A stretch of DNA of 64,000 nt, from positions 4,417 through 68,416 of the IMG/VR virus record IMGVR_UViG_2927124413_000004, one strand, 5' to 3'. The translations under genes were made by a program, and so were the position numbers. The first letter of the stretch is position 1. Each line of letters begins with the position of its first letter. This DNA comes from a virus. Under the pieces are notes generated by a model that worked only from the letters and a program-made list of their open reading frames with translations, did not search any database and was not told the origin of the DNA. Below, one piece after another: positions 1 through 20,075 of the stretch.

Positions 1-185
1 CGCTCGAAATAAGTATATCCTTTCCTGACTTCTCGTAACTCCCGACGTTCTTCGAAATCGACAAAGCCCTCTTCGGATACTGCTGCCATGGGAAGAAACG
101 AGACCACGGCATCATCCGGCAGCGTCTTCGGCATGCGCGGGTTGATCTCGCAAATGTCATCAAGTCGAACGATCCGGGTGCTCAC
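1..185 (-). CDS. hsdS: Type I restriction-modification specificity subunit, N-terminal part (runs off window)
   Basis: Manual translation from GTG at 185, overlapping the hsdM stop: MSTRIVRLDDICEINPRMPKTLPDDAVVSFLPMAAVSEEG...EVRKGYTYFER. This is a typical HsdS start and lies directly after hsdM. Confidence 0.8.
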   Translation of the reverse strand, partial: MSTRIVRLDDICEINPRMPKTLPDDAVVSFLPMAAVSEEGFVDFEERRELREVRKGYTYFE

Positions 186-1723
186 AGCATGGCCTCAAGC
201 TCGTCCAGTCCTTCTGCGATCTCCTCCTCCAGCGCCTTCAATTCCGCGATGATCTTCTTCGGAGGACGATGCTCGGATGCCTCGTGCACCACTTCCTTGT
301 AACGGTTGATAGAGAGATCATACCCCGCCGCCGCAATCTCCGCCTTGGGCACGCAAAAACTTTGCGCCGTACGCGGACGTTCACGCTCGACGCCGCCGCG
401 CTTCGTCCAGCGCGCGGCAATGTCAGGCAGGTTGTTTTTCGCATGCTCGTCGTCGCTGAGCTTCGCCTTCGGGCCGATCTTTTCCGCCGGCAATAGCGCG
501 TTGCGCTTGTCGTCCAGCGAAAGCCCATCGGCCTGACAATCGTAGAACCAGACGTTGTCGGTGCCGCCGGAATTGGTCTTGGTGAACAGCACGATCGCGG
601 TCGAAACGCCGGCATAGGGCCGGAACACGCCGGACGGTAGCTTGACGATGCCGTCGAGCTTATGGTCCTCAACCAACATCCTGCGGATCGCCTTGTGGGC
701 GGTAGATGAGCCGAACAAGACGCCATCCGGAACGATCACCGCCGCGCGTCCGCCAGGCTTCAACAGCTTTAGGAACAGCGCCATGAACAGGAGCTCGGTC
801 TTTTTGGTCTTGACGATGGCAAGCAGATCCTTCGCCGTAGTCTCGTAATCGAGCGAGCCAGCAAACGGCGGATTGGCGAGCACGAGACTGTAGCGGTCTG
901 AATCGCCCGCATGTTCTTGTGCGAGCGAATCCTTGTAGCGGATGTCCGGATCGTCGACGCCGTGCAGCGTCATGTTCATCGAGCCGATGCGCAACATCGT
1001 GCCGTCGAAGTCGAAGCCGTGAAACATTTCCTCGTGAAAATGGCCGCGCGTTGCCTTCTCCTGAAAGAGCTTTGGATGATTGTCGCGCAGATATTCGCCG
1101 GCCGCGACCAGGAAGCCACAGGTGCCGCAGGCCGGATCGCAGATCACGTCCTTCGGGCCCGGCGCCGTCATCTCGACCATCAGCGCGATGATATGGCGCG
1201 GGGTGCGGAACTGGCCGTTCTGGCCCGCCGTCGCGATCTTCGACAGCATGTATTCATAGAGGTCGCCCTTGGTGTCGCGATCCTCCATCGGGATCTCGGC
1301 CAGCAGGTCGACCACCTTGGCCAGCAGCGCGGGCGTGGGAATGGTGAAGCGCGCCCCTCTCATATGCGTGGCGTGCGCGGTGCCGGCCTCGGCCATGTTG
1401 CGCAGGAAGGGAAAGACATGTTCGGAAACGATCTCGAACATCGTCGCGGGATCGCGGTTTTTCAACCGGGACCACCGCATGTCCTCGTAGGCGACGCCGC
1501 CGTTCTTCCCGATCTTGTCCTTGCCTGTCGGAAAAATGCGCCGTTCGATCGGCTTGCCGAGGCGGTTGGCTTTATTCTCCTCGCGCGTATGCGCCTCGTC
1601 GAGGCCGCGCATGAACAGGAGGTAGGTGATCTGCTCGATCACTTCGAGCGGGTTGGCAATGCCTCCCGCCCAGAACGCATTCCAAACCCCATCGATCTTG
1701 GAGCGAAGTTCCCCTGTCAGCAT
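182..1723 (-). CDS. hsdM: Type I restriction-modification N6-adenine methyltransferase subunit
   Basis: 513 aa. Starts MLTGELRSKIDGVWNAFW; has GQFRTPRHII, the DPACGTCGFL SAM motif and the NPPF catalytic motif. Confidence 0.96.
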   Translation of the reverse strand: MLTGELRSKIDGVWNAFWAGGIANPLEVIEQITYLLFMRGLDEAHTREENKANRLGKPIERRIFPTGKDKIGKNGGVAYEDMRWSRLKNRDPATMFEIVSEHVFPFLRNMAEAGTAHATHMRGARFTIPTPALLAKVVDLLAEIPMEDRDTKGDLYEYMLSKIATAGQNGQFRTPRHIIALMVEMTAPGPKDVICDPACGTCGFLVAAGEYLRDNHPKLFQEKATRGHFHEEMFHGFDFDGTMLRIGSMNMTLHGVDDPDIRYKDSLAQEHAGDSDRYSLVLANPPFAGSLDYETTAKDLLAIVKTKKTELLFMALFLKLLKPGGRAAVIVPDGVLFGSSTAHKAIRRMLVEDHKLDGIVKLPSGVFRPYAGVSTAIVLFTKTNSGGTDNVWFYDCQADGLSLDDKRNALLPAEKIGPKAKLSDDEHAKNNLPDIAARWTKRGGVERERPRTAQSFCVPKAEIAAAGYDLSINRYKEVVHEASEHRPPKKIIAELKALEEEIAEGLDELEAML

Positions 1724-4150: not shown

Positions 4151-4433
4151 CCCCGCGGGTCACTTCAAATTCCTCCGGGTGTGGTCAGTCAAATTCCTCC
4201 ACCCGCGAGGCAGGACAAGGGACTGTTAGTTTGAGTTTGTTTCCCGGGCAAGAGCTTCAGCGGCTTCTTTGAGCCGATAGCTGCGTCCGTCGAACTCAAG
4301 CAGATGGCAATGATGCATAAGTGTGTTTCGGCATGGAATAAGGACCCCGTTTTCGGGGTGATCGGCATCCAATCGGGACCCCGGGATAAGGGTCCACAGT
4401 GGCTTCCATCGAGTCATGGAAGCCGAGGTTGGG

Positions 4434-5933
4434 ATGCTGGTGGTGGAGACGATTGGTAAGATCCGTCGCGCCTACTTTGTTGATGGTCGTCCGATCAAGG
4501 CGATCTGCCGAGAACTTGGCGTATCGCGGAAGGTGGTTCGCAAGGTCATTCGTTCTCAAGCGACGGAGTTCCGGTACGAGCGCGAGACGCAGCCGCTCCC
4601 GAAGATGGGTGCCTGGAGTGCCGAGCTTGATCGGTTGCTGGCAGGGAATGAGAGCAAGGCGGCGCGGGAACGGCTGACGCTGATCCGGCTATTCGAGGAG
4701 CTTCGCGGCCTGGGTTATGCCGGCGGCTATGATGCGGTTCGTCGATACGCACGACGGTGGAGCAAGGAACGCGGCACCTCGACAGCGTCGGCTTATGTGC
4801 CGCTGAGCTTTGCACCCGGCGAAGCCTACCAGTTCGACTGGAGCCACGAGGTCGTCCTGCTGAGCGGCACCACGGTGATGGTGAAGGCTGCTCATGTCCG
4901 GCTCTGTCACAGCCGCATGCTGTTCGTGCGGGCCTATCCGCGGGAGACGCAGGAGATGGTGTTCGACGCCCACGACCGGGCATTCGCCTTGTTCAAAGGC
5001 ACCTGCACCCGCGGCATCTACGACAACATGAAGACCGCGGTGGAGACGATCTTTGTCGGTAAAGGCCGTCTCTACAATCGCCGCTTCCTGCAGATGTGCA
5101 GCCACTATCTGGTCGATCCGGTCGCCTGTACGCCAGCGTCGGGCTGGGAGAAGGGGCAAGTCGAGAACCAGGTCGGGCTGGTCCGGGAACGCTTCTTCAC
5201 GCCGCGGCTGCGGTTCAAAACCCTCGACGAGTTAAACGCCTGGCTGCTCGACAAATGCATCGCCTACGCCAAGGCTCATCGCCATCCGGAGCTGACCGAT
5301 CAGACGATCTGGGACGTGTTCGAAGCCGAACGCCCCAAACTCGTTCCCTATGCCGGCCGCTTCGACGGCTTCCATGCGGTGACGGCATCGGTCTCGAAGA
5401 CCTGCCTGGTGCGCTTCGACAACAACAAGTACTCGGTCGCAGCCAGCGCAGTCGGACGACCGGTCGAGGTTCAAGCCTATGCCGATCGCATCGTGATCCG
5501 TCAGGATGGACGTATCGTTGCCGAGCACCCGCGATCATTCGGTCGCGGCGAGACGGTCTACGACCCTTGGCACTATGTGCCCGTGCTGGTGCGCAAGCCC
5601 GGTGCCTTGCGTAATGGCGCTCCCTTCAAGGACTGGGTGCTGCCCGCAGCGATTGAGCGTGTACGGCGCAAACTCGCCGGTGCCGACGATGGCAATCGAC
5701 AGATGGTCGACATCCTCAATGCGGTGCTGACAGACGGATTGCCCGCGGTGGAAGCCGCCTGCGCCGAGGCGGTCGCTCATGGCGTTCATTCCGCCGATGT
5801 CGTTCTCAATATCCTGGCCCGTCAACGTGAACCCGCCTCACCGGCCAACATCATGACGCCGGCCGCACTGACGCTCCGTCATGCACCGATCGCCGATTGT
5901 GCCCGCTACGACAACCTCCGGAGGACCATCTGA
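4434..5933 (+). CDS. istA: IS21 transposase IstA
   Basis: N-terminal HTH; [13 protein letters not shown] and [11 protein letters not shown] motifs. Confidence 0.96.
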
Positions 5934-6796
5934 TGGAACGAACCCAAATCTTCGACCTCATGGGCGAACTCAAGCTCTACGGCATGAAGGCTGCCTTCGA
6001 CGAGATCATGGCAACTGCCGTTAAGCGCCAGCACGAACCTCAGCGCATTGTCGGCGACCTGCTCAACGCCGAGATCAACGAGAAGCAAGCCAGGTCGATC
6101 AAATACCAGCTAACCATTGCCAAGCTGCCGCTCGCCAAGGACATCGCCGACTTCCAGTTCGACGGCACGCCGATCAATCAGACTCTCGTCAATGATCTCG
6201 CTGACGGCGGCTTCATCGCCCAACAACGCAACGTCGTGCTGGTTGGCGGCACCGGTACAGGCAAAACACACCTGGCCATTGCCGTCGCCAGAAGTTGCAT
6301 CCGCAATGGCGCTAGAGGACGCTTCTACAACGTCGTCGACCTCGTCAACCGGCTCGAGACCGAAACCCGCAACGGTCGGCAGGGACGGCTCGCCGAGCAT
6401 CTGACCCGCATGGACTTCATCGTCCTCGACGAGCTGGGCTATCTGCCGTTCGCGCAATCCGGCGGTCAGCTCTTGTTCCATCTCATCAGTCGGCTCTACG
6501 AGCGCACCTCAGTCATTGTCACCACAAATCTTGCGTTCGGCGAATGGCCGAGCGTGTTCGGCGATGCCAAAATGACCACCGCGCTACTCGACCGATTGAC
6601 CCATCACTGCGACATCGTCGAGACCGGCAACGACAGCTGGCGATTCAAAAGCCGCGACGATGTTCAAACAACCCGCGCTCGCGCCGTCTCCGCAACCCCG
6701 ACCAGCTCCGACGACCCGAGCGCTACCAGCAGAGCACGCCGATCAAAGGGGTCCCTTTTGGAGGCCGATAGGGGGTCCCAGTCAAACGCCGATTGA
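5933..6796 (+). CDS. istB: IS21 helper ATPase IstB
   Basis: GGTGTGKT Walker A, IVLDELGY Walker B, LLDRLTHH. Confidence 0.96.
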
Positions 6797-6963
6797 CAGA
6801 TGTCGCTTCAAGACGTTCAACTCCCCGGCCCCTTGCTGGCTAAAGGGGTCGAACATAAACGTCCTGCCTGACCGGCTACTGCTGTTCAGCGGCGCTGACG
6901 GCGATCATCAGGTGGGGGAGTTTCAAGTGACCATACCCGGGGGATTTTGACCGACCCACGGGG

Positions 6964-7772
6964 GGTTCAACCCACGTCGCCTTCGGCTTCCTGATGGCTT
7001 TGGTGAGCTTTGACTTGGGGCTGACCACCGTGTCGAGCTGCTTCCTAATCTGGCTGGAAACAGTGCGAGACCAGCCTGTTCCGACCTTGCCCATGTAAAC
7101 GAGTTCGTTGCCTTCGTTCTTGCCAAGGTATAGGGCCGCGACACCGCTAGGGTCTTTGACGAACCCGATGACCGGAAACTTGCCCTTGTGAACGGCCTTG
7201 ATCTTCAACCAGTTCTCATTTCGCTCGGACCGATACGGCGCATCTGCTCGTTTGGAAATAATGCCTTCCCAATTCAGCTTGGCCGCATGCTCAAACATCT
7301 TCTGCCCATCGCCGACGAGATGCTCGGAAAACAGCACCGGCAGCTCGATGTCGTTTTCGCCGAGCAGGTCTAACAAGAGCTGTTTCCGCTCGATCTGCGG
7401 CAGCCTGCGGAGGTCGCCATTGCGCCAGAGAATATCGAATGCATAGTAGATGAGGCGGCCCTGCCTGCCCGCAGCCAGCTCTGCCTGAAGCTCAGAGAAG
7501 TTGGTACGCCCTTCGTGGACGACCACTACCTCGCCGTCGATGATGGCCTCGCCTTGGATTGCCAGCGCACCCGCAATCTCGGTGAAGCGCTTGGTCCAGT
7601 CCAGCCCCGTGCGGGTGAAGACTTTCTTCCTTCCCCGGTTGAGATGGACCTGAATGCGGTAGCCGTCGTACTTGATCTCATGAAGCCACTGGTCGCCCTT
7701 CGGCGCCCTGGACTTCAATGTTGCAAGCTGGGGCTTAATGAACCCCGGCATGGTTTGAATATGCTTCGTCAA
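6964..7772 (-). pseudogene. ATP-dependent DNA ligase (stand-alone LigD/LigC-type ligase domain), interrupted by IS
   Basis: HEIKYDGYR adenylation motif, IIDGEVV, YYAFDIL, WEGIISK, WLKIK. Reading frame runs into the IS end after TWVEP. Confidence 0.9.
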
Positions 7773-8092
7773 TAACGCAACTCACAAAAAGCCCGCCCCA
7801 CCTGGATGGGCAACGGCGGGCATTTTACTGAATTCCAGGGATTCCCGAACAATCAGGGGACGTGATCCTTCCTGCCACCACCAACACTATTGCTTGTTCA
7901 GGGCTAATCCCGATTGCCCGTAGCGGCGAGCCTTTGAGTTTGCTCTCAACAGGCGGAATCGCGACCTTGCGGCGGACCGCCTCGTCGCCCCGGAGTGGTC
8001 ATCTGCCCGCATGCAAAAAATGAGAGTCCAAAAGCCGGCCTCGCGGTGTAGCCTTCGGCCCGTACCAGTGGAGTTGCGTGATGGGTATATTG

Positions 8093-8422
8093 ATGCCGTC
8101 GATCGTTCCGGGCGCACCAGAGGATTATTATATCGTTCTCAACCACTACGGCGTGTACGGACCAGCGTTTGCGGAAACCGATCTTTACCGCGCCGACTAT
8201 GAGACCACCATCAGCGATCTGCTCAGCGGACAGCATTCCGATCCGCTGCGGGTGATCATGTTCAACCCCGAGACCAATCGCTCGGAAGATGTCTCGCATG
8301 CCGTGGCTCAGGAGCTGCTCCGCCGCCTCGGGCTGAAGGGCGATCCGGTGCCGCGCGCCCTCGAAGACTTCATCGATCGCCACGCCGGATCCGACCGCCA
8401 GCTCACGCTGCGGCTGGCTTAA
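8093..8422 (+). CDS. Hypothetical protein
   Basis: Well-formed ORF; resembles small rhizobial conserved hypotheticals. Confidence 0.65.
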   Translation: MPSIVPGAPEDYYIVLNHYGVYGPAFAETDLYRADYETTISDLLSGQHSDPLRVIMFNPETNRSEDVSHAVAQELLRRLGLKGDPVPRALEDFIDRHAGSDRQLTLRLA

Positions 8423-8430
8423 AGGGGGCG

Positions 8431-8640
8431 ATGAACCGCGACGCCATCGAGACTGAACTCGCCGTGATCGAGCTGATCCTGCAGGATGATCAGCTCAAGG
8501 ACGAGGACCGCGCCGCGCTGCATGGCGCCAGCCAGGCGTTGCGTCATGTGCTCGGTCCAGACACCTGGCACCCGGCAAGCCAGACGTTCTATCGTGTCGA
8601 TGACCGGCCGATCGAGTCGCCGAGCCGCAAGCGGCACTGA
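8431..8640 (+). CDS. Small hypothetical protein
   Basis: AGGGGG RBS; follows the preceding gene directly. Confidence 0.55.
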   Translation: MNRDAIETELAVIELILQDDQLKDEDRAALHGASQALRHVLGPDTWHPASQTFYRVDDRPIESPSRKRH

Positions 8641-8655
8641 TCTCGACGCTGTTGG

Positions 8656-9222
8656 TCATTCGGTCACCACCATCCTTGCCTCGCCGCCCAGCGCCTGCAC
8701 GATGTCGGTCAGCGAATGCTGCTTCTCCTGCTTCGTCGGCATCACCTGGGAATCGATCTCATGCCATTGGCCGTCCGGTGCCATCTGCGGCGGAATGATC
8801 GTCACCGCTTCTCGCGCGATCCCGTAGCGCACCAGCCCGATGATGCCCTGCTCGGCGCGGCGGCTCAGATAGCGGCGCAGCGCCGGATCGCGGTGGGCAT
8901 CGGCATGTCTCGGATCGCACCAGATCTGCACGACCTGGATATTCTGCCGCGCGCCGCTGTCGTCGTTCTGGATCGAGATGAAGTCGGGCATGAGGTCGAC
9001 GACGTAATGCGAGCGATCAGGCCGCGACAGATCGGCGGTGTCGTCATTGACCAGCCAGCGACAATTCCAGATCGCACATTCCGGCGGCATCCGCGCGGTG
9101 TGATAGACCGAGCAACCCTTGTGGAATTTCTGGAAGCGGCAGCTCTCGCCGGCCTTCTTGCCCAGCGGCGGCACCGGCAGCAGCCTGCAGCACAGCTGGC
9201 AGTCACCGCATTGCCGCATCAT
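8656..9222 (-). CDS. Cys-cluster protein (YkgJ-like CxxCxxCC)
   Basis: CGDCQLCC, then C..., CSVY...P.EC..W.C.W. Confidence 0.65.
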   Translation of the reverse strand: MMRQCGDCQLCCRLLPVPPLGKKAGESCRFQKFHKGCSVYHTARMPPECAIWNCRWLVNDDTADLSRPDRSHYVVDLMPDFISIQNDDSGARQNIQVVQIWCDPRHADAHRDPALRRYLSRRAEQGIIGLVRYGIAREAVTIIPPQMAPDGQWHEIDSQVMPTKQEKQHSLTDIVQALGGEARMVVTE

Positions 9223-9534: not shown

Positions 9535-10314
9535 TCATGGCTGAATGATCCCGTTCTTCATGGCGAGCACGACGGCATGGGTACGGGTCGCGGCACCGAG
9601 CTTGTGGCATGCATTCTTGATGTGCTCCGCCACCGTCCGCAGGCTGATGTGCAGCATTTCGCTGATCTCGCCGCCGGTTTTGCCTACCGCCGCCAGCGTC
9701 AGTACCTCGCGTTCGCGCGGCGTCAGCGCCGGCTGTGGCAGGTCGGTTCTGCCGCTCAGCTCAAGCACCCGCTCGAACGCATAGAGCGCCATGAAATGCA
9801 GCGCAGGAAATTCGTCCATCGGCAGGTCAATCTCGCTCTCGCGCCCGCCGAACCATACCTGTCCAATCCGACCGTTGCTAGAATGAGCCGGAATTACAAG
9901 ACCATCCTGCAAACCCCAGTCACGCGCCCGCTGCACCATCTCGACGAAATGCGGCTCGCGCCGCGGATCATAGGGCGCGTCCGCGACCCATCGATAGGGG
10001 CGGATCGTCCGCTTGGTGTGACGCACAGCCGGATCGGCGTGAACGAAGTCACGCTCGATATAGTGTTTCACCCAGCCGTCCGGGAATTTGTCGGCCAGGA
10101 TAAGGTCTTGCGTGCCCTCGCCTGGCGCCAAGGTGACGAAGCTGGCGCAGAAGTTATCGAACCCGTGTAAGCCGACCGCTTTGATCATGGCCTCCATGAC
10201 CTTTGCTGGATCAGAAATGCGCTGAACTTCATCAGCGAACCGGAACGCATTGCGTCGGACGCGGCTACGTCGATCCATGGTGATGGCCTCCGCTTCATTG
10301 CCGGCCATCGGCAA
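9535..10314 (-). CDS. luxR: LuxR-family quorum-sensing receptor (autoinducer-binding domain plus HTH), LuxR solo
   Basis: W-x3-Y-x8-DP-x13-W spacing matches TraR W57/Y61/D70/P71/W85; a downstream G equivalent to G113; LTPREREVL..G..I...L.IS..TV..H HTH. No luxI in the window. Confidence 0.93.
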   Translation of the reverse strand: MPMAGNEAEAITMDRRSRVRRNAFRFADEVQRISDPAKVMEAMIKAVGLHGFDNFCASFVTLAPGEGTQDLILADKFPDGWVKHYIERDFVHADPAVRHTKRTIRPYRWVADAPYDPRREPHFVEMVQRARDWGLQDGLVIPAHSSNGRIGQVWFGGRESEIDLPMDEFPALHFMALYAFERVLELSGRTDLPQPALTPREREVLTLAAVGKTGGEISEMLHISLRTVAEHIKNACHKLGAATRTHAVVLAMKNGIIQP

Positions 10315-10415
10315 AACAGCCTAACCGCGCGCGCCCCAGATCGAATAACACCGCCGCAGCGAAAATTCCGTCTGCTTGCGATGAACAGCTATGATCTTCT
10401 CCTTTCGAAAATTCA

Positions 10416-10434
10416 TTTGTCCGTTTTGGACAAA
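10416..10434. promoter_or_regulatory. Palindromic operator candidate upstream of luxR
   Basis: TTTGTCC-N5-GGACAAA in an AT-rich intergenic region. Confidence 0.45.
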
Positions 10435-10607
10435 ATCGGAAACGCCAGGGTCAGCTCGATATACATCTGAGCGAGCGCACGACGACCCTCCGCTATCGCG
10501 AGCGGAATAGGCAAGGCTGGCATTGGTTGCGTCCCTTAACTCGCGCGAATCGTCAATAATGATCTACTTACGTGAGCCTATCGTTAACGTTTCGATGTCA
10601 GATAGGA

Positions 10608-10871
10608 TCACGGTTCGATCTCCATCACTTCCGATCGCGTCGTGAACTTGATCAGCTTGATCTTCTTGCCGGTGATCCGCGCGACCTCGCGCGCCCACGG
10701 CTTCAGGGCTTCCACGCGTTTCTTGTCTGCGGCCATCAACGGCACGAGGCTGCCTTCGCCCATCAGCGGCGCCGCGCAGACGCCCTCGCCGGCCTCGTCG
10801 ACCGATACGAACAGATAGACCTCATCAATGCGCAGCTGCTCGTTGGCCGGACTGTGGACGACAGTGATCAT
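10608..10871 (-). CDS. Hypothetical protein
   Basis: Coupled to the XRE gene by an ATGA overlap. Confidence 0.6.
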   Translation of the reverse strand: MITVVHSPANEQLRIDEVYLFVSVDEAGEGVCAAPLMGEGSLVPLMAADKKRVEALKPWAREVARITGKKIKLIKFTTRSEVMEIEP

Positions 10872-11278
10872 GCCCCGGCCTCGCCATAGACGTTGCCGAG
10901 CTTGCGGACGAAGTCGATCACGCTGCGGCGCAGCTCCGGATTGTCCAGCTTGATCATTGCCTCGTTGATGTCGATGCCGTCTTTCGTCGCCAGGAAGGCA
11001 TGGATCGGTGACGTCTTCATCTTGCCATCCGTGTCGTCGAGGAAATAGGCGAAGTTGGTTTCGAGCGCATCCGCGATTTGCTTCAGCCGTGCCGATCCGA
11101 CTCGATTGACGCCCTTCTCATATTTCTGCACTTGCTGGAAGCTGACGCCGAGCTTGTCGCCCAGTTCGCCTTGGCTCATGTGCTGTTCCAGCCGGCGCGC
11201 CTTCAGCCGTTGGCCGATCAGGCGATCACCCGGCGTAACCGCCCGCGGGTGTGCTTTCTTCCCACTGGGTTTCTTCAT
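10868..11278 (-). CDS. XRE-family HTH transcriptional regulator
   Basis: IGQRLKARR...MSQGELGDKLGVSFQQVQKYEKGVNRV. Confidence 0.92.
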   Translation of the reverse strand: MKKPSGKKAHPRAVTPGDRLIGQRLKARRLEQHMSQGELGDKLGVSFQQVQKYEKGVNRVGSARLKQIADALETNFAYFLDDTDGKMKTSPIHAFLATKDGIDINEAMIKLDNPELRRSVIDFVRKLGNVYGEAGA

Positions 11279-11635
11279 CTATCTTCCCTTCCTGGCGTGA
11301 CCATTGCTGCGCTTCTTCTTGCTGTTCGCCGCCTCCTGCTTCGCCCACCAGTCCGCTGCGGCCTTGCGCTCCTTTTCGACGTCGATCTCCTTGACCTTCT
11401 GGAACGTCTCCTCGTAGCCGAGCGACGTCATGATCCCGGCGACCGTGCGGTGTTGTGGATTCCGGGTGCCACCGTGGAAAAGACCGTGCAAACAGCTGGT
11501 CGAGATTCCGGACAGCTCGTGGACGATCGTCAGCTTTTTGAACAGGCCCTCGTCCTGCAGGACCGTTCGCATTTTGTCGATGACCGGATTTTTATCGACG
11601 TACCGGTACGTCCTTAGCACACGTAGCTCAGCCAT
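11279..11635 (-). CDS. Probable XRE-like HTH protein
   Basis: LSGISTSCLHGLFHGGTRNPQHRTVAGIMTSLGY resembles an HTH recognition segment. Confidence 0.55.
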   Translation of the reverse strand: MAELRVLRTYRYVDKNPVIDKMRTVLQDEGLFKKLTIVHELSGISTSCLHGLFHGGTRNPQHRTVAGIMTSLGYEETFQKVKEIDVEKERKAAADWWAKQEAANSKKKRSNGHARKGR

Positions 11636-12281
11636 GGGCAGCCTCCATCGCCGGCTGCTCGATCTTCTGACCCTTCGCCGTCAACGCGTAGCCCGAGCCG
11701 TTCTTCTTGACCAGACCGTCGCGCTTCGCGCGCTCGAGCACGCCGGAGATCGACTTCGGCGACATGCCTTTGCTCGCCATCCGCGCCCGCAGATCGGAAG
11801 GCCGCACCGGTCCAGCCTCCAGCGCGGCACGCAGCACGATATTGCCGCTGCCAGGTGCGGCGCGACCGGCCGGCCCTCTCTTGACGACGGCAGGCGCCGG
11901 CAGCGCCGGCACGTGCGGCTGCTGCGGATTGACTTCAGCCATCGCCTTGTCGGTGACCTGCCAGACGCCCTTGCCGGCGGATTTGGCCAGCTTCTTTTTC
12001 AGCAGATAGTTCACCGTGCCATAGACGCGGGATTTAGCACCACCGATCGCCGCACCCAATTCGCCGATTGTCTTCGGCCCGGTCATCAGCATCGCCACGA
12101 CCTGCGCCCGCGCGGTCTCGCCGTTGCTATAGCTGCGCCCGTTGGCGGGTTGTAACGCCGGCTTAGGACCGCCGAGCATCAGGTCAATCTTCGCGACCCC
12201 CGGCATTTCATCGAGCCGCCGCAACACTGTGCCAAGCGCAATCTCTTCTACTTCCAACCTGATTGGAAATGTCTTTGGCAT
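11628..12281 (-). CDS. Probable DNA-binding protein with two winged-helix-like segments
   Basis: GPKTIGELGAAIGGAKSRVYGTVNYLLKKKL and ISGVLERAKRDGLVKKNGSGYALT; GAGGGA RBS before 12281. Confidence 0.55.
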   Translation of the reverse strand: MPKTFPIRLEVEEIALGTVLRRLDEMPGVAKIDLMLGGPKPALQPANGRSYSNGETARAQVVAMLMTGPKTIGELGAAIGGAKSRVYGTVNYLLKKKLAKSAGKGVWQVTDKAMAEVNPQQPHVPALPAPAVVKRGPAGRAAPGSGNIVLRAALEAGPVRPSDLRARMASKGMSPKSISGVLERAKRDGLVKKNGSGYALTAKGQKIEQPAMEAAHG

Positions 12282-12409
12282 CGCGTCCCTCTGTTTTGTT
12301 TTTTCCAAGATGTGTGCACGTCGGCAACACACACTTTTGCCGGATTTTCCCGGAGTAGTACCGTCTTACGCCTAGCCGCGGCAGTTGTGTAGAAGGAACT
12401 GCTCGCGCG

Positions 12410-12484
12410 TAGTAAAATTATATTTGAAGCAGCACACACTGCTTCATTAGCGTTCCAACTTCGGACCTGTACAAATGCACAGTG
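12410..12484 (-). promoter_or_regulatory. Moron promoter: perfect -10 TATAAT (12417-12422), no clear -35, upstream lux-box-like site (12465-12484)
   Basis: ACCTGTACAAATGCACAGTG fits CTG-N10-CAG and matches 13 of 20 positions of the V. fischeri lux box. Confidence 0.5.
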
Positions 12485-12516
12485 TCTTTTTGGACAGGTC
12501 CGGCCTTTTTGCGGAC

Positions 12517-12542
12517 AAAAAAATTCCCCGCCGAAGCGGGGA
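12517..12542 (-). terminator. Rho-independent terminator ending the late (tail) operon
   Basis: Minus strand TCCCCGC-TTCG-GCGGGGA followed by ATTTTTTT. Confidence 0.85.
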
Positions 12543-12571: not shown

Positions 12572-12901
12572 TCAGGCGGCAGCAAACGCCAGCGCCCGCG
12601 CCGTCCAGATCGAGGACAACGCGAACTCGATATCGGCGTCGGGCACGTTCGCGCCCTTCTGCTCGGGCGCACTCTCAATGGTTGCACCAATCGTCGGGTT
12701 GGAAGAGATGACGTGCGCCGCGACATTCTGCGGCTGTTCCTGACCGCGAAAGATGCGCTGCGAATATGACACCCGCGCATCGTGATTGGGCTCAGTCGTA
12801 GCCTCGCTGGCGACCGCCTGCGCCACCTTGAACATCAGCATCATGACGCGACCGGCGAACGTCGGATCTGAAGCGGTCGAGATCAGATCGAGTGCGGACA
12901 T
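12572..12901 (-). CDS. Phage hypothetical protein (last late gene)
   Basis: Co-oriented with and coupled to the fibre module. Confidence 0.65.
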   Translation of the reverse strand: MSALDLISTASDPTFAGRVMMLMFKVAQAVASEATTEPNHDARVSYSQRIFRGQEQPQNVAAHVISSNPTIGATIESAPEQKGANVPDADIEFALSSIWTARALAFAAA

Positions 12902-12903
12902 GG

Positions 12904-13188
12904 TTAAAAACCTCCAAGAATTTGCGACATGTTTTTCAAGTTCATGCTGTTCAGTGTCGGGTTGATGGCCCGTTCTGGCGGCACGAGCGGCCCGGCGTTG
13001 TCGACATAGATTTGAAATGGCGCGAAGTCGTCGATCGTTTCGTTATGATCGCCATACTCGACTTCGCCATGATCGTCGAACCACTGCACGGCGTGAATGT
13101 CCTGCACGCCGAGTTCGGCGCAATCGCTTTTCATCGGCGTGCCGTCCACCACCAAAATATTGTCAGGGACGACTATTGAGACGCGCAT
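12904..13188 (-). CDS. Putative tail-fibre assembly/accessory protein
   Basis: Small acidic protein directly after the fibre genes. Confidence 0.5.
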   Translation of the reverse strand: MRVSIVVPDNILVVDGTPMKSDCAELGVQDIHAVQWFDDHGEVEYGDHNETIDDFAPFQIYVDNAGPLVPPERAINPTLNSMNLKNMSQILGGF

Positions 13189-13489
13189 CGGTCAGTCTCC
13201 TGTTTGCAACCCCATTGGCAGCGGCGTCGACCGCTTCGATCACACCGCTGATCATGCCGTTGCGAAAGGTTTCCACGGCAGCGGCGGTACCGCGCGACAC
13301 CTGTGCATTCTCGATCAACAGCATCGGCAACAGAGTGATGGCGCATTGCCAGTTGTCGATCATCTCTTCGCTTTGTGGGTTCTTGCCGATCACGCGACAC
13401 CACCACGGGCATTTGTGGCAGACTTTGGAGACGTCCACTTTGTGCAGCGGACAGATCGTGCCTTGCTCGGCGTGCGGAATTTGCGCCAT
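13163..13489 (-). CDS. Cys-rich phage protein adjacent to the tail fibre
   Basis: CPL..VCHKCPWW..W.CAITLLPMLLIEN, a motif I recognise from fibre-adjacent phage genes. Confidence 0.6.
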   Translation of the reverse strand: MAQIPHAEQGTICPLHKVDVSKVCHKCPWWCRVIGKNPQSEEMIDNWQCAITLLPMLLIENAQVSRGTAAAVETFRNGMISGVIEAVDAAANGVANRRLTDARLNSRP

Positions 13490-14586
13490 CAGGTTTTACT
13501 CGCGATGATGATGTCGATGTACTGCATCGCCATGGTGATCGGATGATTGTGGCCAGCGCCGCTGACGTTGTTGACGGCGGTGTTGATGTTCTGGACGCCC
13601 TGATGATAGCCAATGTCCCCCAGATTGGCGTACGGGCAACCCATCATGTAAAGATTAGTCGCACCGGTCTGGAATTGCTGAGCAGCGTACCCCCCGGACA
13701 CACCAGTGAGATGATAGCCGGAATTGTTGTGCGGATAGACCGTAATAGTGTTGCTGCCACTGCAGGTTTGCCCGGCGGGAATCTCAGCGAGCGATAGCGT
13801 GTGATAGCCGACGTTGGTCTGCGCCATCACCGTCGAGAAGGTATTGGTGCCGCCTGCACCGCCGCCGGCACCAGAGACCACCCGCAGCACCTTGTCGTTA
13901 TGCGTCGTGACTTGGGTCCAACCGACCGGCGCGGCGGCCTGATAGAACAACATCCGCGTGCCAGCCGGGAACGAAGTCGGTATAACAACTTCTGACCACG
14001 CCGCCGATTGCCGCGCGTACTGCTTTCCGTCAACAGGCGCTTCCGGCACAGGGCCGGGCGGACCCTGAATGCCTTGAATGCCTTGCGCACCTTGCGGACC
14101 GGTGTCGCCCTTGCTCGCGACGAGCGCCCATTTCCCAGCGGCAAGATCGGTAGCGAAGACGCCAGAGGTGTGACTGACTGCGCAGACGTAGGTCGAGCCA
14201 CCGGTCGTCACCACGCTCTTGGGGCTGACCGTTGTGTATGCCGTAGCTGTTGCCCATGCGACCGGCAGCAGCCATGCTTCAGGACCGACCGGACCAATCG
14301 GACCTTGAATACCTTGAATGCCTTGTGGGCCGGTGGCGCCGGTCTCGCCTTTCGGACCTTGCGGACCAGTGTCGCCTGTATCGCCCTTGTCGCCCTTGTA
14401 TCCGCGCGGACCTTGCGGGCCGACCGGTCCGGGCACGCCCTGCGGACCAATCGGACCTGGAATGCCCTGCGGGCCTTGTCCCGGCACCTCAATCAAGACG
14501 GTGTCATCGGGCTCAGCGGTGATGATTACTGGGGCGATCGGCTCCGCAAACACGTCGATGTTGGTGAGACCGGTGGTATCGGTCAT
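13489..14586 (-). CDS. Collagen-like tail fibre with carbohydrate-binding-like module
   Basis: About 20 GXY triplets; W...TAY...V...G.TY.C..SHTS.....W module; FPAGTRMLFYQAAAPVGWT collar-like motif. Confidence 0.8.
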   Translation of the reverse strand: MTDTTGLTNIDVFAEPIAPVIITAEPDDTVLIEVPGQGPQGIPGPIGPQGVPGPVGPQGPRGYKGDKGDTGDTGPQGPKGETGATGPQGIQGIQGPIGPVGPEAWLLPVAWATATAYTTVSPKSVVTTGGSTYVCAVSHTSGVFATDLAAGKWALVASKGDTGPQGAQGIQGIQGPPGPVPEAPVDGKQYARQSAAWSEVVIPTSFPAGTRMLFYQAAAPVGWTQVTTHNDKVLRVVSGAGGGAGGTNTFSTVMAQTNVGYHTLSLAEIPAGQTCSGSNTITVYPHNNSGYHLTGVSGGYAAQQFQTGATNLYMMGCPYANLGDIGYHQGVQNINTAVNNVSGAGHNHPITMAMQYIDIIIASKT

Positions 14587-14930
14587 CGCGTCGGACCCAT
14601 CGAGTGAGCCAGCGTGCCGTGCCAGATCTCTTCATGCATCTTGTCCGGCCGCGTCCTGATCAGCGAGTGGACGTATTCGCCGGGATAGAGCTTCTGCTCA
14701 AAATCCTCGATCAGGATCGTTAGCTTGAACTCTCCGGTCGTGCCGGGCTTCAGCTCGATCCTGCCGTTGTCTGTATTCAGGTCGAGGAAGACGGTAGGCG
14801 ATTCCGGATGCTGGCGCAGCATCATCGCCAGCTTCGACCCGGTCAGGTCGATCGCCACGCCAGCGATCGTCTTGTAAAGAAACGACCTAACGAAGTCGCT
14901 GTCACTTCGCGTGGTGATATTGCAGATCAT
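14583..14930 (-). CDS. Phage baseplate/fibre-associated hypothetical protein
   Basis: Position and coupling within the tail operon. Confidence 0.6.
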   Translation of the reverse strand: MICNITTRSDSDFVRSFLYKTIAGVAIDLTGSKLAMMLRQHPESPTVFLDLNTDNGRIELKPGTTGEFKLTILIEDFEQKLYPGEYVHSLIRTRPDKMHEEIWHGTLAHSMGPTR

Positions 14931-15526
14931 TCGCGACCCTCACCGCCGAGGTCGTCCTGATAGCCGGCCACTTTGCCCATGATGACGGCGTCGACTTGCT
15001 TTCTGGTGGTCATGGCGCCCGTGGCGATCGAGCCGGCAGCCTTGGCCTCTGCGGCGTAGCTGTCGGTGACGTGCTTGCCCACGGCCGTCGCGATCTTGAT
15101 GATGGCTGGCGCATCGAGCGGGACAAAGTGACCAGGCCCGACCTTGTAGAAGGTCTTAAACGACTTGTCGTTGATCGCTAGATTGAACAGGAAGTTGATC
15201 CTGGCAACACTGTCCCTGTCGGTTGCGATCTGGACCCCGTTGACGGTGACCCCGGCGACTTCCCTATCGAAGCGAGCGCCGGCCGCCATCGTCATCAGCT
15301 CATCCTTCGATGGTTTGAGACCAGCGTCGAAAACCTCCTGGGCCAGCTTTGCGGATTCCTTGGGGATGATAACTTTGGCGCCGTCATACAGCGGTGTGCA
15401 CTTCGGATCTCGCGCAAGCAGGCGAGCAGAGAAGATCCCGGCCTGCTCGACGTCGACCTTCAGGTCGAGCGTATCCGACTTTGATTTGGGCGGCGGCTCG
15501 GGTTTTAGTTCGGGAAATTCGGGCAT
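14927..15526 (-). CDS. DUF4376-like tail-fibre chaperone
   Basis: RFDREVAGVTVNGVQIATDRDS motif; start at MPEFPE overlaps the fibre stop. Confidence 0.7.
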   Translation of the reverse strand: MPEFPELKPEPPPKSKSDTLDLKVDVEQAGIFSARLLARDPKCTPLYDGAKVIIPKESAKLAQEVFDAGLKPSKDELMTMAAGARFDREVAGVTVNGVQIATDRDSVARINFLFNLAINDKSFKTFYKVGPGHFVPLDAPAIIKIATAVGKHVTDSYAAEAKAAGSIATGAMTTRKQVDAVIMGKVAGYQDDLGGEGRE

Positions 15527-16773
15527 TATCTGACCCTCGAAATAGAGAGACCGACACTGTTGTCTAAGTAGTAGGCGGCCATCGCGCCGTTGACTTGCTG
15601 GGAGGCGAGCTGAAGGTAGTCGCCGGCAACCAGCTCCAGCACCGCGCCACCGCCGCCATAGTCTTCCTTGATGTAGGTCGTGCCGCCAGTCGATTGCCAA
15701 CCAGCCGCACCCAATAGCCAACCGCCATTCTTGAACAACATGGCGCAAGTCAGACCCGTGAAGGGCTCGTTGCCATTGGCGCCGGAGGCGATGTGATTCC
15801 AGGTCAGGACGTATCGACCCGTCTGTAAGATGTAGCAGGCTCCACTTGAGATCGTGACGTTGTTCTGCGTGTTGCCGGACCACGCGCTAAATGGCACCGA
15901 CATCTTGGTATAGTACGGACTATAGATTCGAGAGCTTCCGCTGAATCCCACTGTTTCCAAGAACGGAACGACCACGCCTGCTGCTGGCGTCGGATAATTC
16001 ACAGCGACCAATTGCCATTTGGTGCCGTCGTACACCATCAAGGCGACTCCGCCGGCCGGGATATCTCCGGCTTTCAATGCAGAGCCGTCCGGCCTGCTGA
16101 CCGTTTTCCAAACGTTATCTGGCGTGCATCTGAATTGCGTGGCGCCGGTTGTGGTGTAGGCGACCTTGACCAGCACCACCAGCCCGGCACTGAGCGCGAC
16201 AATGCCCGGCGTGAACGAGCCGATGATCTGGTTCACGGAGCCGATGTCTGTCGTGTACGGAATGTTGGTGGTGTAGGTGATGTTCGTCTCTGCGACGCCA
16301 GTGCCCTGGAAGTTAGCCATTTGCCAGTGAGAGCCGTCCCAGATCAGCTCGGTGACGATGCCCGCCGGAAGATCGTTGTCCGCGAGATCTGCGCCGGAGG
16401 CCCGCTTGATCAGGTTGACGCCAGTGCCGACGTCGATCGTCGCCGGTCCGGTGTTCTTCGCCCCGCTCTTCTTGATGCGAAGCGTGAGACCGGGGATCAG
16501 CGCCGTGATCGGCGGCGCGATGACGGCGATCATCGCGTTGGCGGTGCCGGTGTCTATTCCGTAGATGACCTGGCCATTCTGCACCGCTTTGCTGAGCTGG
16601 CGAAGATCATCGTTGGTTGGCACCAGACCACTGTCTGTAAAGAACTGGACCAGCTCCCTCTGCGGAAACTCGATCGCCGCCGCCGGCGGGATCGATCCGC
16701 GCCGGCCAATGCTGGGATCGCCGTTGATGTATGGAGAGTCCGGCAAATCGCCGTAAGGTTCATTGTATTTCAT
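15526..16773 (-). CDS. Tail fibre / receptor-binding protein, C1q/TNF-like C-terminus suspected
   Basis: Mu-like fibre N-terminus after gp48-like gene; two internal repeats (NTGPATIDVG...W; TTGATQF...YDGTKWQL); C-terminal GRYVL...LFKNG...LELVAGDYLQL. Confidence 0.8.
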   Translation of the reverse strand: MKYNEPYGDLPDSPYINGDPSIGRRGSIPPAAAIEFPQRELVQFFTDSGLVPTNDDLRQLSKAVQNGQVIYGIDTGTANAMIAVIAPPITALIPGLTLRIKKSGAKNTGPATIDVGTGVNLIKRASGADLADNDLPAGIVTELIWDGSHWQMANFQGTGVAETNITYTTNIPYTTDIGSVNQIIGSFTPGIVALSAGLVVLVKVAYTTTGATQFRCTPDNVWKTVSRPDGSALKAGDIPAGGVALMVYDGTKWQLVAVNYPTPAAGVVVPFLETVGFSGSSRIYSPYYTKMSVPFSAWSGNTQNNVTISSGACYILQTGRYVLTWNHIASGANGNEPFTGLTCAMLFKNGGWLLGAAGWQSTGGTTYIKEDYGGGGAVLELVAGDYLQLASQQVNGAMAAYYLDNSVGLSISRVR

Positions 16774-16783
16774 AGCGTAAACC

Positions 16784-17560
16784 TCATGGTGTTCCGGCCA
16801 TGGAGCTGGCTTCCATCAGATTGGAGTAATCGAAGATGATCTCGGTGTGCGCCGGCTTCCACCTGCGCAGCAGGCACTCAAGGTCGTCGGCCAGGCCGAT
16901 TTCGAGATGATGATGAACCCCAACCTCTCCGCCACTGGGACCGACCCTGAACCACTCCAGGCGCGCGATGTGAACGTGGACGGTCCAAAAGAAGCGGTTC
17001 TCCGGCGGGCCGAGCATGTAGGGATATTCGGAATACTCGCCCAGCTGAACCGGCCGACCGTCCGGATTGAGGATCGGCATCGGAACGACAGGGTTATCCT
17101 CATTCCGCATGAATGAGCCGCTGCCGATCGTTCGGTTATCGCCGCAGCGATCCATCCCAACGATGAAGGGACGATATTCCGTGATGCTGATGTCGTAGCC
17201 AATATAGGCCGCAGCATCGATGTAGAATTGCCGCGACTGTCCGCCGAGCAGCGTCATCCGCATCACCAGCTCGCGCTGGCGTTCAGCGATGGTCAGCGGA
17301 TGGGCGTAGCACGGGTCCGGCAAGCCCCAATTGCGTTCCCAGTCGGGAAGCAGCTCGAGCGTCTTGCGCGGGTCGCTCTCTATCTCCAGCAGATCTGCGG
17401 CGCGGCTGTCGACATAGCCCCAGTATTTGCACAGCCCGTCGACGGCCTGCCATAGCACGCTGTCGATCGAATGTTTCGGCCAGGCCTGACCTTGCGGCAA
17501 CAGCTCCAGGAAGGCATCGCGGTATTCATCACCGGCCCTGCGAATGTGCCGGTCGCTCAT
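16784..17560 (-). CDS. Mu gp48-like (YmfQ/DUF2313) baseplate wedge protein
   Basis: LLPQGQAWP, LLPDWERNWGLPD, LECLLRRWKPAHT. Confidence 0.88.
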   Translation of the reverse strand: MSDRHIRRAGDEYRDAFLELLPQGQAWPKHSIDSVLWQAVDGLCKYWGYVDSRAADLLEIESDPRKTLELLPDWERNWGLPDPCYAHPLTIAERQRELVMRMTLLGGQSRQFYIDAAAYIGYDISITEYRPFIVGMDRCGDNRTIGSGSFMRNEDNPVVPMPILNPDGRPVQLGEYSEYPYMLGPPENRFFWTVHVHIARLEWFRVGPSGGEVGVHHHLEIGLADDLECLLRRWKPAHTEIIFDYSNLMEASSMAGTP

Positions 17561-17563
17561 CGC

Positions 17564-18688
17564 TTAGCCCACGGGATAATGGATAGAACCGAGCACGGCC
17601 ATGTGGCCGGGGGTTTCCATCAAATAATCGCCATCCGTCACCAGCCGGAACGACACCACATGCGGCGCGCTCATGATCGCGTAGCTGACCCAGGAGGCGT
17701 AGATGGTCGCTCCCGGCGCCGCCTGGGCCCGCAGCATGGTGCGAATGCTGGCCTCGATCTCCGCCTTGGCTTCCTCGGTCTCCGGCGTCAGCTGGCTGAT
17801 AACAACGTCGATGAACTGCTTGATCGGCGCCACCACGTAGCAGTCCTTGACCGTGACCGGCCGCCTGTAATCGATGTAGTCGGCGACCGCGATGATGTCT
17901 TCCGGCTCCGGCCAGCCATCATTGTCAGCGCGCAGATCGTCCATCAGGAAGCGGACGACGACGGTGCCGATGCCCATCTGGTTGGGTGCGGCCCAGGCCC
18001 GCGTCACACCTGGCACCGCGAGCGCCCAAGCCTCGTAGTCATAGGCGGCGCCGCCCATCGGCGGCTGCTGAATCCGGCGCAGGATCCGGTCGCGCAATTC
18101 CTCGTCGGTTTCAGTGTCGGTGCCGCCGGTCAGCCCGACGATGGTTGCAGTCGTATCGATGCCAGGAACGGGCGGGAAAATCGACAGTGTACTACCCGCC
18201 GGCAGATTGCCGATCGAGCCCGGATCGAGGGCGCGGATTTGGCCGGTGACCAGCATGCCGGCCCAGGTCGTGATGTCCTCCAGCGTCTCGAAGGTCACCA
18301 CATTGTACGGCGACCCCGATCCGATCGGCATCGGAACGCCGCTCTGCATCTGGGTGCCGGTCGGCATCACGGCGCCGTCGACCGTGGCCGTGAACTCCGC
18401 CGTGCCGTGGGACAGGCTCGCCACCTTGCGGCCCTTGGAGCCGTCGGCGTTGACGAGCCAGATCTGGCCGTGACGATCCAGCCACTCGGTCTCGGCGGTG
18501 TCGGGCAACAGCTGCAGCGCCAGCCAGTCGATGTATTGCAGCGTCAGGTGACAGAGCGCGCCCTGGTTATCTGACAGCACGCGCAGCACGCTGTTCGGCA
18601 CATTGGCATCGGCGCCAGGCAGCGAGCCGCGGACGCTATCGCGGACCAGCGAACGGACGTCTCTAAGGGTTGGGGTGGACCAGGGGAT
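17564..18688 (-). CDS. Baseplate J-like protein (Mu gp47); predicted start codon is ATC
   Basis: GGTDTETDEELRDRIL, PMGGAAYDYEAWALAVPGVTRAW. GGAGG RBS 6 nt before ATC-CCC-TGG. Confidence 0.9.
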   Translation of the reverse strand: MPWSTPTLRDVRSLVRDSVRGSLPGADANVPNSVLRVLSDNQGALCHLTLQYIDWLALQLLPDTAETEWLDRHGQIWLVNADGSKGRKVASLSHGTAEFTATVDGAVMPTGTQMQSGVPMPIGSGSPYNVVTFETLEDITTWAGMLVTGQIRALDPGSIGNLPAGSTLSIFPPVPGIDTTATIVGLTGGTDTETDEELRDRILRRIQQPPMGGAAYDYEAWALAVPGVTRAWAAPNQMGIGTVVVRFLMDDLRADNDGWPEPEDIIAVADYIDYRRPVTVKDCYVVAPIKQFIDVVISQLTPETEEAKAEIEASIRTMLRAQAAPGATIYASWVSYAIMSAPHVVSFRLVTDGDYLMETPGHMAVLGSIHYPVG

Positions 18689-18727
18689 AGGCCGCCTCCC
18701 TCTTACGCTTGGTTTCAGCACTCATTT

Positions 18728-19249
18728 CTATGACCCCGCCATTGCTTCCCAGAGCACCGCGTAGCGCAGCTCGATCTCACGTTCCGGACCGCGGTAGATC
18801 CGGATCAGGGCGTCGATGCGCTGCTTGTCGACCCGGCTCACCCAGACATCGAAACCCGAGCAGATCTTGCGATCGACGAATGGCTGCATCGCCGCGCGGA
18901 TGTATTCCTTGACCCGCACCAGCGTCGAACCCTCGCGCGAGGCCGGCGAATCGATCTTGTTGCGGCGCAATAGCCAGAGCTTCGACCCGATCGGCCAACC
19001 CTTCCAGATTAGCTCGGCATCGAGATCGCCCCACCAGCCGCAGCGGTCGGTGGAATCAGGATCCGGCAGGATGTCGTCTTTATCGGCCAGCGCATCGGTG
19101 CCCAGCGCGACGATCACCGCAGTGGCCAGCGCCTGGGTGTCGTCGAGCGTGCCGTTCGGCAATAGCGACCAATCCACCGTCACCGAGTATTTCGGAAAGA
19201 CGTTGTTCTGGACCAGCCGGATGTCGGGGACGTTGAGCTCGCCCGCCAT
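18728..19249 (-). CDS. Mu gp46-like baseplate protein
   Basis: LATAVIVALGTD, RCGWWGD, GSKLWLLRR. Confidence 0.9.
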   Translation of the reverse strand: MAGELNVPDIRLVQNNVFPKYSVTVDWSLLPNGTLDDTQALATAVIVALGTDALADKDDILPDPDSTDRCGWWGDLDAELIWKGWPIGSKLWLLRRNKIDSPASREGSTLVRVKEYIRAAMQPFVDRKICSGFDVWVSRVDKQRIDALIRIYRGPEREIELRYAVLWEAMAGS

Positions 19250-19252
19250 CGC

Positions 19253-20062: not shown

Positions 20063-20075
20063 GGTTAGTTCTCCG

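Follow-up and report, generated by a model that had tools for sequence, protein, structure and literature searches.

A LuxR-type receptor gene, unaccompanied by any gene for a signal synthase, is carried by a temperate myovirus of about 85 kb that is integrated in Bradyrhizobium. The gene (here simply luxR) lies in a 64,000-nucleotide stretch of IMG/VR virus record IMGVR_UViG_2927124413_000004, corresponding to positions 4,417 to 68,416 of that record; this whole stretch is referred to as the window, and coordinates are those of the window. The full-length product is encoded within a cluster of phage regulator genes and probably gives the prophage an input from the signals of its host. The position that it occupies recurs among diverged relatives of the phage, in which it is filled either by LuxR homologues or by regulators of other families. 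Quorum-sensing receptors of phages have been worked out in few systems (Vibrio phage VP882, Aeromonas phages ARM81ld and Apop, and Roseobacter prophages), and the present case would extend them to rhizobia and to a family of integrated myoviruses with Mu-like tails.

The receptor and its signal-binding pocket

9535..10278, minus strand: luxR, a LuxR-type receptor of 247 amino acids (Pfam, PDB relatives, AlphaFold2 and Foldseek, hallmark residues)

The longest luxR frame in the list of open reading frames (ORFs) spans 9535-10314 on the minus strand (259 codons, with a TTG start); the ATG at 10278 is favoured as the start by the gene callers on identical metagenome contigs and by the N-termini of homologues. 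Residue numbers given below refer to the 259-residue version. Searches against Pfam identified the autoinducer-binding domain Autoind_bind (PF03472, E 2.1e-27, residues 37-183, corresponding to profile positions 3-149 of 149) and a C-terminal GerE/LuxR helix-turn-helix (HTH) domain (PF00196, E 4.5e-15, residues 196-251). NCBIfam models for named receptors (the PA1136 family, TraR and SdiA among them) gave sub-threshold matches only, which indicates a LuxR-type protein that is not an orthologue of a characterised receptor. The top solved relatives by sequence were LasR (1.6e-19), RhlR, QscR, TraR, CviR and SdiA, and an AlphaFold2 model computed with 32 homologues (predicted local distance difference test score 90.7, predicted template modelling score 0.87) matched every acyl-homoserine lactone receptor of known structure, with a Foldseek probability of 1.00 to TraR, LasR, SdiA, RhlR, QscR and CviR. 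The ligand-binding domain of that model aligned with the corresponding domain of LasR at a template modelling score of about 0.76-0.79.

Alignments with LasR and with the family, together with checks of individual residues, placed W81, Y85, D94, P95 and W109 at spacings of 4, 9, 1 and 14; these correspond, at identical spacing, to W57, Y61, D70, P71 and W85 of TraR. G138 aligns with TraR G113, and E201, L205 and G211 of the HTH (at spacings of 4 and 6) are the equivalents of TraR E178, L182 and G188, such that all nine hallmark residues, six of them signal-binding (WYDPWG) and three in the HTH, are kept. V82 replaces LasR R61, at one of three pocket positions (the others being F77 and W154) where the protein departs from LasR or TraR. 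No match to the synthase family Autoind_synth (PF00765) was found in the whole 71,566-bp virus record, by the same search that does find LuxI in Bradyrhizobium genomes, and no LuxI is listed in the gene tables of either flank of the element. A first-pass annotation of the window had described the protein as a LuxR solo with an intact pocket for acyl-homoserine lactone (AHL) signals, citing the pocket residues at TraR spacing, the G113 equivalent, the three HTH residues and the lack of luxI in 64 kb; the Pfam, alignment and fold results uphold that description, and the absence of luxI extends to the full record. By every feature of sequence and fold, the protein is an AHL-type receptor and a solo. 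Solos of the OryR/XccR type, from plant-associated bacteria, carry W57M and Y61W in the pocket, and an assignment to this type was rejected since W81 and Y85 are retained.

Carriage by an integrated temperate myovirus

The window is part of a provirus record of 71,566 bp (CheckV completeness 96%) whose start and end both coincide exactly with gene stops. Virion and lysis genes are encoded on its minus strand, between about 49 and 12.6 kb, and a Toprim protein is encoded in the right part of the record, as are the early recombination genes:

12572..44891, minus strand: late region, comprising terS, terL, endolysin, capsid/protease fusion, portal, sheath, tube, Mu-like baseplate and tail fibres (PHROG)
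58921..60617, plus strand: early genes for recombination (YqaJ-like exonuclease, RecT) that lead to the AlpA-like genes at the right attachment site, attR (Pfam; gene tables L071-L073)

Searches of the record for tyrosine and serine recombinases returned none, and the integrase was found just outside it. The flanks of the element were recovered by exact-protein look-up from two complete genomes (GCA_054822425.1 and GCA_054823685.1) and from the source assembly, GCA_018130595.1. Beyond the left end of the record lie further cargo (RR/HATPase-like genes, Mrr, insertion sequence (IS) elements and small ORFs), a P4-type integrase of 461 residues and the host gene guaB; on the right, the record is followed first by a second AlpA-like gene and next by a host transporter gene of the major facilitator superfamily (MFS). 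The target of insertion is the 5' end (the first ~19 codons) of this core MFS-transporter gene, which is found beside guaB. Its original first 19 codons remain at the left junction, and the right junction provides a phage-borne substitute N-terminus (L067; L072:11846-11900). A 13-bp attachment (att) core, CCCT(C/G)TTCATGGA, is present at both junctions, with no third copy in the element; a search for exact common substrings of 11 nt or more had returned nothing, and the imperfect core was found by reading the junctions. It is confirmed by ten other Bradyrhizobium species with an empty site, in which one flank runs straight into the other with an overlap of about 11 bp. The att pair and these contiguous flanks indicate that the whole ~85 kb represents one insertion. 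The element is thus accompanied by an integrase, att repeats, empty sites and full sets of virion and lysis genes, that is, by everything that marks an integrated temperate tailed phage. Within it, luxR is located about 24 kb inside attL, and ~22 kb of defence- and IS-rich cargo separates it from the integrase.

A regulator cluster with an exchangeable position

The late operon is closed by an intrinsic terminator, after which the genes p234, p118, XRE, p87, a 36-residue ORF, luxR, p100 and p188 follow in that order on the same strand:

12525..12542, minus strand: intrinsic terminator closing the late (tail) operon, with a GC-rich stem, UUCG loop and T-run (conserved in related prophages L091, L093 and L095)
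11628..12332, minus strand: p234, winged-helix protein (TrmB/HVO_A0261-like), first gene of the cluster (weak Pfam matches; homologues at 35-63%)
11279..11635, minus strand: p118, weakly like a phage transcriptional regulator family (phrog_18104, 5.9e-5; conserved in relatives)
10868..11278, minus strand: XRE-family (HTH_3) regulator of 136 residues (Pfam HTH_3, 5e-13; PHROG regulator/repressor families)
10608..10871, minus strand: p87, small protein, with a 4-nt overlap with the XRE gene (homologues at 58-71% beside XRE in related prophages; no match to a known family)
10413..10523, minus strand: 36-residue ORF between p87 and luxR (called on metagenome contigs; not conserved in the related contig L066)
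9219..9521, minus strand: p100, 13 nt downstream of luxR (weak phrog_12188 match)
8656..9222, minus strand: p188, last gene of the luxR-p100-p188 unit, with a 4-nt overlap with p100 (phrog_9155, 5e-5)
8078..8640, plus strand: p114 and p69, small genes convergent on p188 (gene calls of contig L005; conserved with the ligase in relatives)

Because the conserved terminator precedes it, the cluster appears to be transcribed separately from the late genes. The first-pass annotation had placed luxR in a moron slot after the tail operon of an integrated alphaproteobacterial myovirus. The nature of the element is borne out by its Bradyrhizobium host, att repeats, empty sites and Mu-like contractile tail genes, and luxR does lie just after the tail operon; the location is better described, however, as a conserved and separately transcribed regulator cluster near the integrase end than as a moron slot.

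Six diverged relatives of the phage carry a LuxR homologue in this cluster, and in five of these the homologue can be seen to lie just beyond the tail genes. Two prophages of G044 (G044a and G044b, with LuxRs at 49% and 42%) and one of G139 (43.5%) share the terminase-to-baseplate operon at 50-89%, carry luxR a few kb past the tail genes, and have homologues of p188, XRE, p87 or p118 nearby. The fourth, L064, belongs to Bradyrhizobium japonicum GCA_041261505 and displays baseplate and fibre genes, XRE, LuxR, a Crp-like gene and a type I restriction-modification system; in the fifth, L065 of strain S3.9.1, an XRE-LuxR pair starts ~200 bp, and luxR itself ~800 bp, after the last late gene. The sixth, L066, is a metagenome contig of 5.6 kb with no tail genes in view, which preserves the p234-p118-XRE-p87-luxR order of the window and has p188 farther along. 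In the window, L066, G044a, G139, L064 and L065, luxR has an XRE homologue no more than about 2.2 kb away; near the luxR of G044b none was detected. One Bradyrhizobium genome, G044, holds three prophages of the family (G044:C3, at ~2.91-2.95, 3.95-3.97 and 6.91-6.95 Mb), two of which carry different LuxRs and the third a small winged-helix regulator in the same position.

The generality of this exchange was examined among 18 related prophage loci, found with the baseplate protein in 11 of 301 species, of which 15 returned no LuxR at a tblastn E of 1e-5, the three with LuxR being G044a, G044b and G139. Parts of the cluster persist in most of these 15 loci (XRE in 12, p118 in 11, p188 in 7, with 5-7 loci for each of p234, p87, ligase and SRAP). 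Inspection of the position beside p188, in the seven LuxR-less loci that keep that gene, revealed an AraC-type or small winged-helix regulator in six: an AraC-type HTH_18 protein in L084 (by Pfam) and a similar protein in L090 (by sequence likeness), and small winged-helix regulators in L085-L087 and L096 (with weak Pfam support, and for L085 sequence likeness only). The seventh, L091, has the gene order of the window and unrelated ORFs without family matches beside p188. A P4-type integrase directly follows the cluster in L084, L090 and L096 (supported by Pfam for L084 and L096). Since the LuxR-less loci mostly keep parts of the cluster and swap regulators within it, the cluster appears to be a mostly conserved, integrase-proximal regulatory region with one variable position for a sensor-regulator. 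One phage backbone with a LuxR, an AraC-type or a winged-helix regulator in that position also offers a comparison ready-made by nature.

Among the genes around the variable position p188 is the best conserved; it displays an N-terminal CGDCQLCC (CxxCxxCC) cysteine cluster and has at least 949 homologues; its nearest ESM-Atlas clusters are 88-97% viral, one of them with PF03692. Homologues at 59-68% occur in related prophages, adjoining luxR in G044a and G044b and lying ~1.4 kb away in L066. In two isolated phages of Bradyrhizobium, ppBdUSDA122-1 and ppBeUSDA76-1, homologues of p100 (58-62% at the amino acid level) come immediately behind the integrase gene. Pfam searches at E up to 10 returned nothing for p188, p87, p118 and p114, and chance-level matches only for p100 and p69; for p234 they returned the sub-threshold matches HVO_A0261_N (6.6e-7; 29.6 bits against a cut-off of 35 bits) and MarR_2 (5e-4). 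A terminator-like hairpin with 7-bp arms (10416-10434) overlaps the 3' end of the 36-residue ORF. No Peptidase_S24 (LexA/CI-type) repressor was found by Pfam in the 71.6-kb record, and an immunity repressor is not obvious. The record holds two HTH_3 matches, and the XRE protein next to luxR, which is its only small XRE protein, may be that repressor.

Candidate operator sites

12462..12502, minus strand: 41-bp palindrome with 14-nt arms (ACCTGT and ACAGGT), upstream of the p234 operon (repeat search)

The palindrome overlaps a 20-mer that matches 13 of 20 lux-box positions; it is absent from three LuxR-less relatives and partly present in the LuxR-bearing L066. The pattern CCTGT...ACAGG forms the invariant arms of the Vibrio fischeri lux box. 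Its version with an 8-nt spacer (CCTGT-N8-ACAGG) occurs exactly at 52076-52093 and 59023-59040 and with one mismatch at 12466, and the 59023 site is located 80 nt inside the YqaJ-like coding sequence, beside the divergent early region. As read from sequence, these are candidate operators, to be treated only as leads.

Other palindromes accompany luxR in the relatives, and none is common to all of the LuxR-bearing prophages. Between the divergent XRE and luxR genes of L064 and L065, about 38 nt ahead of luxR, there is a tra-box-like TGTGCA-N4-TGCACA (imperfect by one base in L065), which may be autoregulatory. A GAGTAAC-N4-GTTACTC palindrome is found, with variants, ~160 nt after luxR in L064, L065 and G139, the next gene being Crp-like in L064 and L065. 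A 22-bp palindrome between luxR and p188 in G044b was considered as an operator and set aside, as it is equally likely to be a terminator hairpin.

Relationships of the receptor

Homologues of the window LuxR at 48-60% identity are present in about 18 of 301 Bradyrhizobium species; the common BjaR1-type receptors are 36-39% identical to it. A scan of IMG/VR for close LuxR relatives found none, and the sole return of a scan of GTDB genomes was a chromosomal homologue from Bradyrhizobium sp. Ec3.3, which sits among metabolic genes with no phage genes within 10 kb. Among the 20 nearest homologue loci, 11 occupy one syntenic chromosomal site ('locA' solos, 48-53%) and three are in prophages; one of the next-closest homologues, the metagenome protein P0006 (55%), lies in the same XRE-p87-luxR module as that of the window. 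A maximum-likelihood tree joins the window LuxR to the solo of Ec3.3 and to two metagenome proteins, including P0006 (support 100/97), with the chromosomal syntenic solos as their sister group. A second, prophage-borne clade (99/95) unites the other five phage LuxRs, and both lineages fall within one clade (97/91). The phylogeny against host chromosomal LuxRs that the first-pass annotation had proposed, which asked whether close homologues are restricted to prophages, therefore gives a divided answer, in that the closest homologue is chromosomal, while P0006 lies in a phage module and a sister clade of five is prophage-borne.

Proposed function and alternative explanations

In the explanation that we consider probable, LuxR in the lysogen would bind an acyl- or aryl-homoserine lactone released by the host or its neighbours; the signal-bound protein would then fold, dimerise and bind DNA and, possibly together with the adjacent XRE protein, would alter the transcription of phage genes. 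The outcome would be a cell-density input into induction, maintenance of lysogeny or control of superinfection. The class of ligand, the targets and the direction of the effect are what we infer rather than observe. A wider proposal, which is decidedly tentative, is that this lineage of Bradyrhizobium myoviruses has an integrase-side lysogeny control with interchangeable sensors (LuxR, AraC-type, winged-helix and Crp-like), in which LuxR might eavesdrop on branched or aryl-homoserine lactones and thereby set a density-linked 'spontaneous' release in soybean inoculant strains. The ligand specificity of a phage receptor would be informative here because the signals of Bradyrhizobium are chemically unusual. 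Cultures of Bradyrhizobium release temperate phages spontaneously, and for soybean bradyrhizobia quorum sensing has been suggested as one possible cause, with no candidate gene named (PMC11599138). The luxR gene described here is a concrete candidate.

A number of observations weigh against a role of LuxR in AHL-dependent phage control. The gene is present in only three of the 18 related prophage loci of the 301-species sample. Its closest homologue (60%) is the chromosomal solo of Ec3.3 and of a second assembly, and the phage LuxRs are not monophyletic, which implies repeated movement of the gene between phages and chromosomes; a gene so mobile need not serve the phage. With one mismatch allowed, three lux-box-like matches were found where 1.02 are expected, a count that is not significant (10 of 100 shuffles reach three), and two of the three fall in coding sequence. 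Unlike the Aeromonas phage modules, the window showed no counter-oriented small ORF (smORF) upstream of its XRE-luxR genes: only the late-operon terminator and the palindrome lie upstream of the cluster, p114 and p69 are convergent, and the 36-residue ORF is on the same strand. In the pocket, F77 stands at the position of LasR Y56 and TraR Y53, W154 at that of LasR S129 and TraR T129, and in the sister phage LuxRs W57 gives way to Y, F or L, so that the ligand may not be a classical AHL. The main rival explanation, which we regard as unlikely while giving it more weight than the others, is that luxR is a solo of lysogenic conversion, which rewires host quorum-sensing genes or titrates signal for the lysogen and has no part in the choice between lysis and lysogeny. 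The gene lies in an att-proximal accessory region together with type I restriction-modification, SRAP and ligase genes and is transcribed apart from the late genes; moreover, its nearest relative and its large sister group are chromosomal solos, the latter at a syntenic host locus in 11 species, which suggests that proteins of this kind work on host promoters. In the earliest study of phage LuxRs, furthermore, a lysogen of Aeromonas popoffii was not lysed by added AHL (PMC6456758). Against conversion, other regulators fill the same position in sister phages, among DNA-binding proteins beside the integrase, a pattern that looks like phage control rather than cargo; in addition, six of the seven loci with a LuxR have an XRE gene close to it, an arrangement shared with the phages that XRE and LuxR induce (PMC10432266).

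A lesser rival, to which we assign a rather low probability, holds that the protein has the LuxR fold and an inherited pocket and no longer senses AHL, being either ligand-independent or tuned to, for example, a plant or soil compound. In the Bradyrhizobium solo clade W, F or Y at the S129/T129 position is the rule (BjaR1-like proteins have S) and the position of Y56 lacks a tyrosine; the W57 position is F in the chromosomal sister solos and varies in some of the phage sisters, and LuxI is absent within about 9 kb at all 20 of the nearest homologue loci. The window LuxR, however, keeps all six WYDPWG residues, including D94, and is not of the plant-associated type, and Bradyrhizobium hosts encode LuxI synthases, as do the hosts of two sister prophage lineages. 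That luxR might instead be host or island DNA wrongly included in the provirus call is highly improbable. Such an error could be suspected from the lack of an integrase in the record itself, from the distance that separates luxR from the integrase (~22 kb, filled with defence- and IS-rich cargo), and from the chromosomal location of the closest LuxR homologue. It was rejected on the att and empty-site evidence: the limits of the whole element are set by a single att pair with no third copy and by the empty sites of 10 species. The cluster, furthermore, follows tail genes in many diverged relatives (with the integrase immediately after it in some), and the flanking p100 and p188 belong to phage families. 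Sensory input to phage control is the explanation that we prefer.

Accessory genes and other features

The region between luxR and the left end of the window contains cargo that is partly shared among the relatives:

6876..7772, minus strand: ATP-dependent DNA ligase domain protein, its 3' end disrupted by an IS (Pfam DNA_ligase_A_M and DNA_ligase_A_C)
4154..6963, plus strand: IS21-family insertion in the 3' end of the ligase gene (istA 4416-5933, istB 5897-6796; Pfam)
182..1723, minus strand: hsdM of a type I restriction-modification cargo, with hsdS and hsdR left of the window (L050; Pfam)

Homologues of the ligase occur in relatives and in ppBeUSDA76-1. In metagenome contig L005, which is 100% identical, exactly 4154-6963 is missing and positions 6964 and 4153 are adjacent, which marks the IS21 insertion as recent. 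The B. japonicum relative also carries a type I restriction-modification system at its corresponding end (L064:13696-19725), where the S3.9.1 relative has a SIR2-domain gene instead, and the att-proximal end looks like a hotspot for defence cargo. A SRAP (SOS-response-associated peptidase) gene at 2752-3414 has counterparts at 85-87% identity near the att-proximal end of L085, L091 and L097, and fragments in L064 and L093. Far from this end, and just upstream of terS, a protein of 1378 residues with an N-terminal HTH_3 domain is encoded at 44943-49079; it matches phrog_18693 over nearly its full length (E 1.8e-131).

Comparison with known systems

The chromosomal Bradyrhizobium solos are of the same family and lineage as the window LuxR and likewise have no adjacent luxI, but they are found in ordinary chromosomal neighbourhoods, and at the W57 position the window LuxR keeps W where the locA solos carry F. 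The BjaR1-type receptors differ in being paired with a LuxI. Among phage receptors, VqmA-Phi of phage VP882 is of the PAS type, with 3,5-dimethylpyrazin-2-ol (DPO) as its ligand, and belongs to a family unrelated to the window LuxR, such that the likeness is one of analogy only. VqmA-Phi is a phage copy of a host quorum-sensing receptor that times lysis (PMC6456758). Searches of the full-text literature turned up no description of a LuxR carried by a phage of Bradyrhizobium.

The Aeromonas phages ARM81ld and Apop offer a closer parallel, in that each carries a LuxR beside an XRE gene and lacks a luxI of its own. Their LuxRs are solubilised by, or bind, the C4-homoserine lactone of the host (PMC6456758), and the XRE and LuxR proteins activate an antirepressor smORF, leading to SOS-independent induction of the phage (PMC10432266). 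The window LuxR is 28% identical to those receptors. The Aeromonas phages are linear and plasmid-like, whereas the phage described here is an integrated myovirus with a Mu-like tail and an alphaproteobacterial host, and p87 and the 36-residue ORF separate xre from luxR in the window, unlike in the Aeromonas modules.

The prophages of Roseobacter (Phaeobacter) carry xre-luxR-luxI cassettes that are exchangeable and can be replaced by regulators unrelated to quorum sensing, and the screen that described them, which was based on luxI, reported such modules only in the Roseobacter clade (bioRxiv 10.64898/2026.07.02.736140). Because it relied on luxI, that screen could not have found the Bradyrhizobium solo. 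The Roseobacter prophages encode a luxI and communicate with one another, and the present phage has no such gene; both are integrated alphaproteobacterial prophages in which an XRE-LuxR cassette is exchanged among relatives. By analogy, the logic proposed here would match that of the Aeromonas XRE-LuxR modules as well as that of the Roseobacter xre-luxR-luxI modules.

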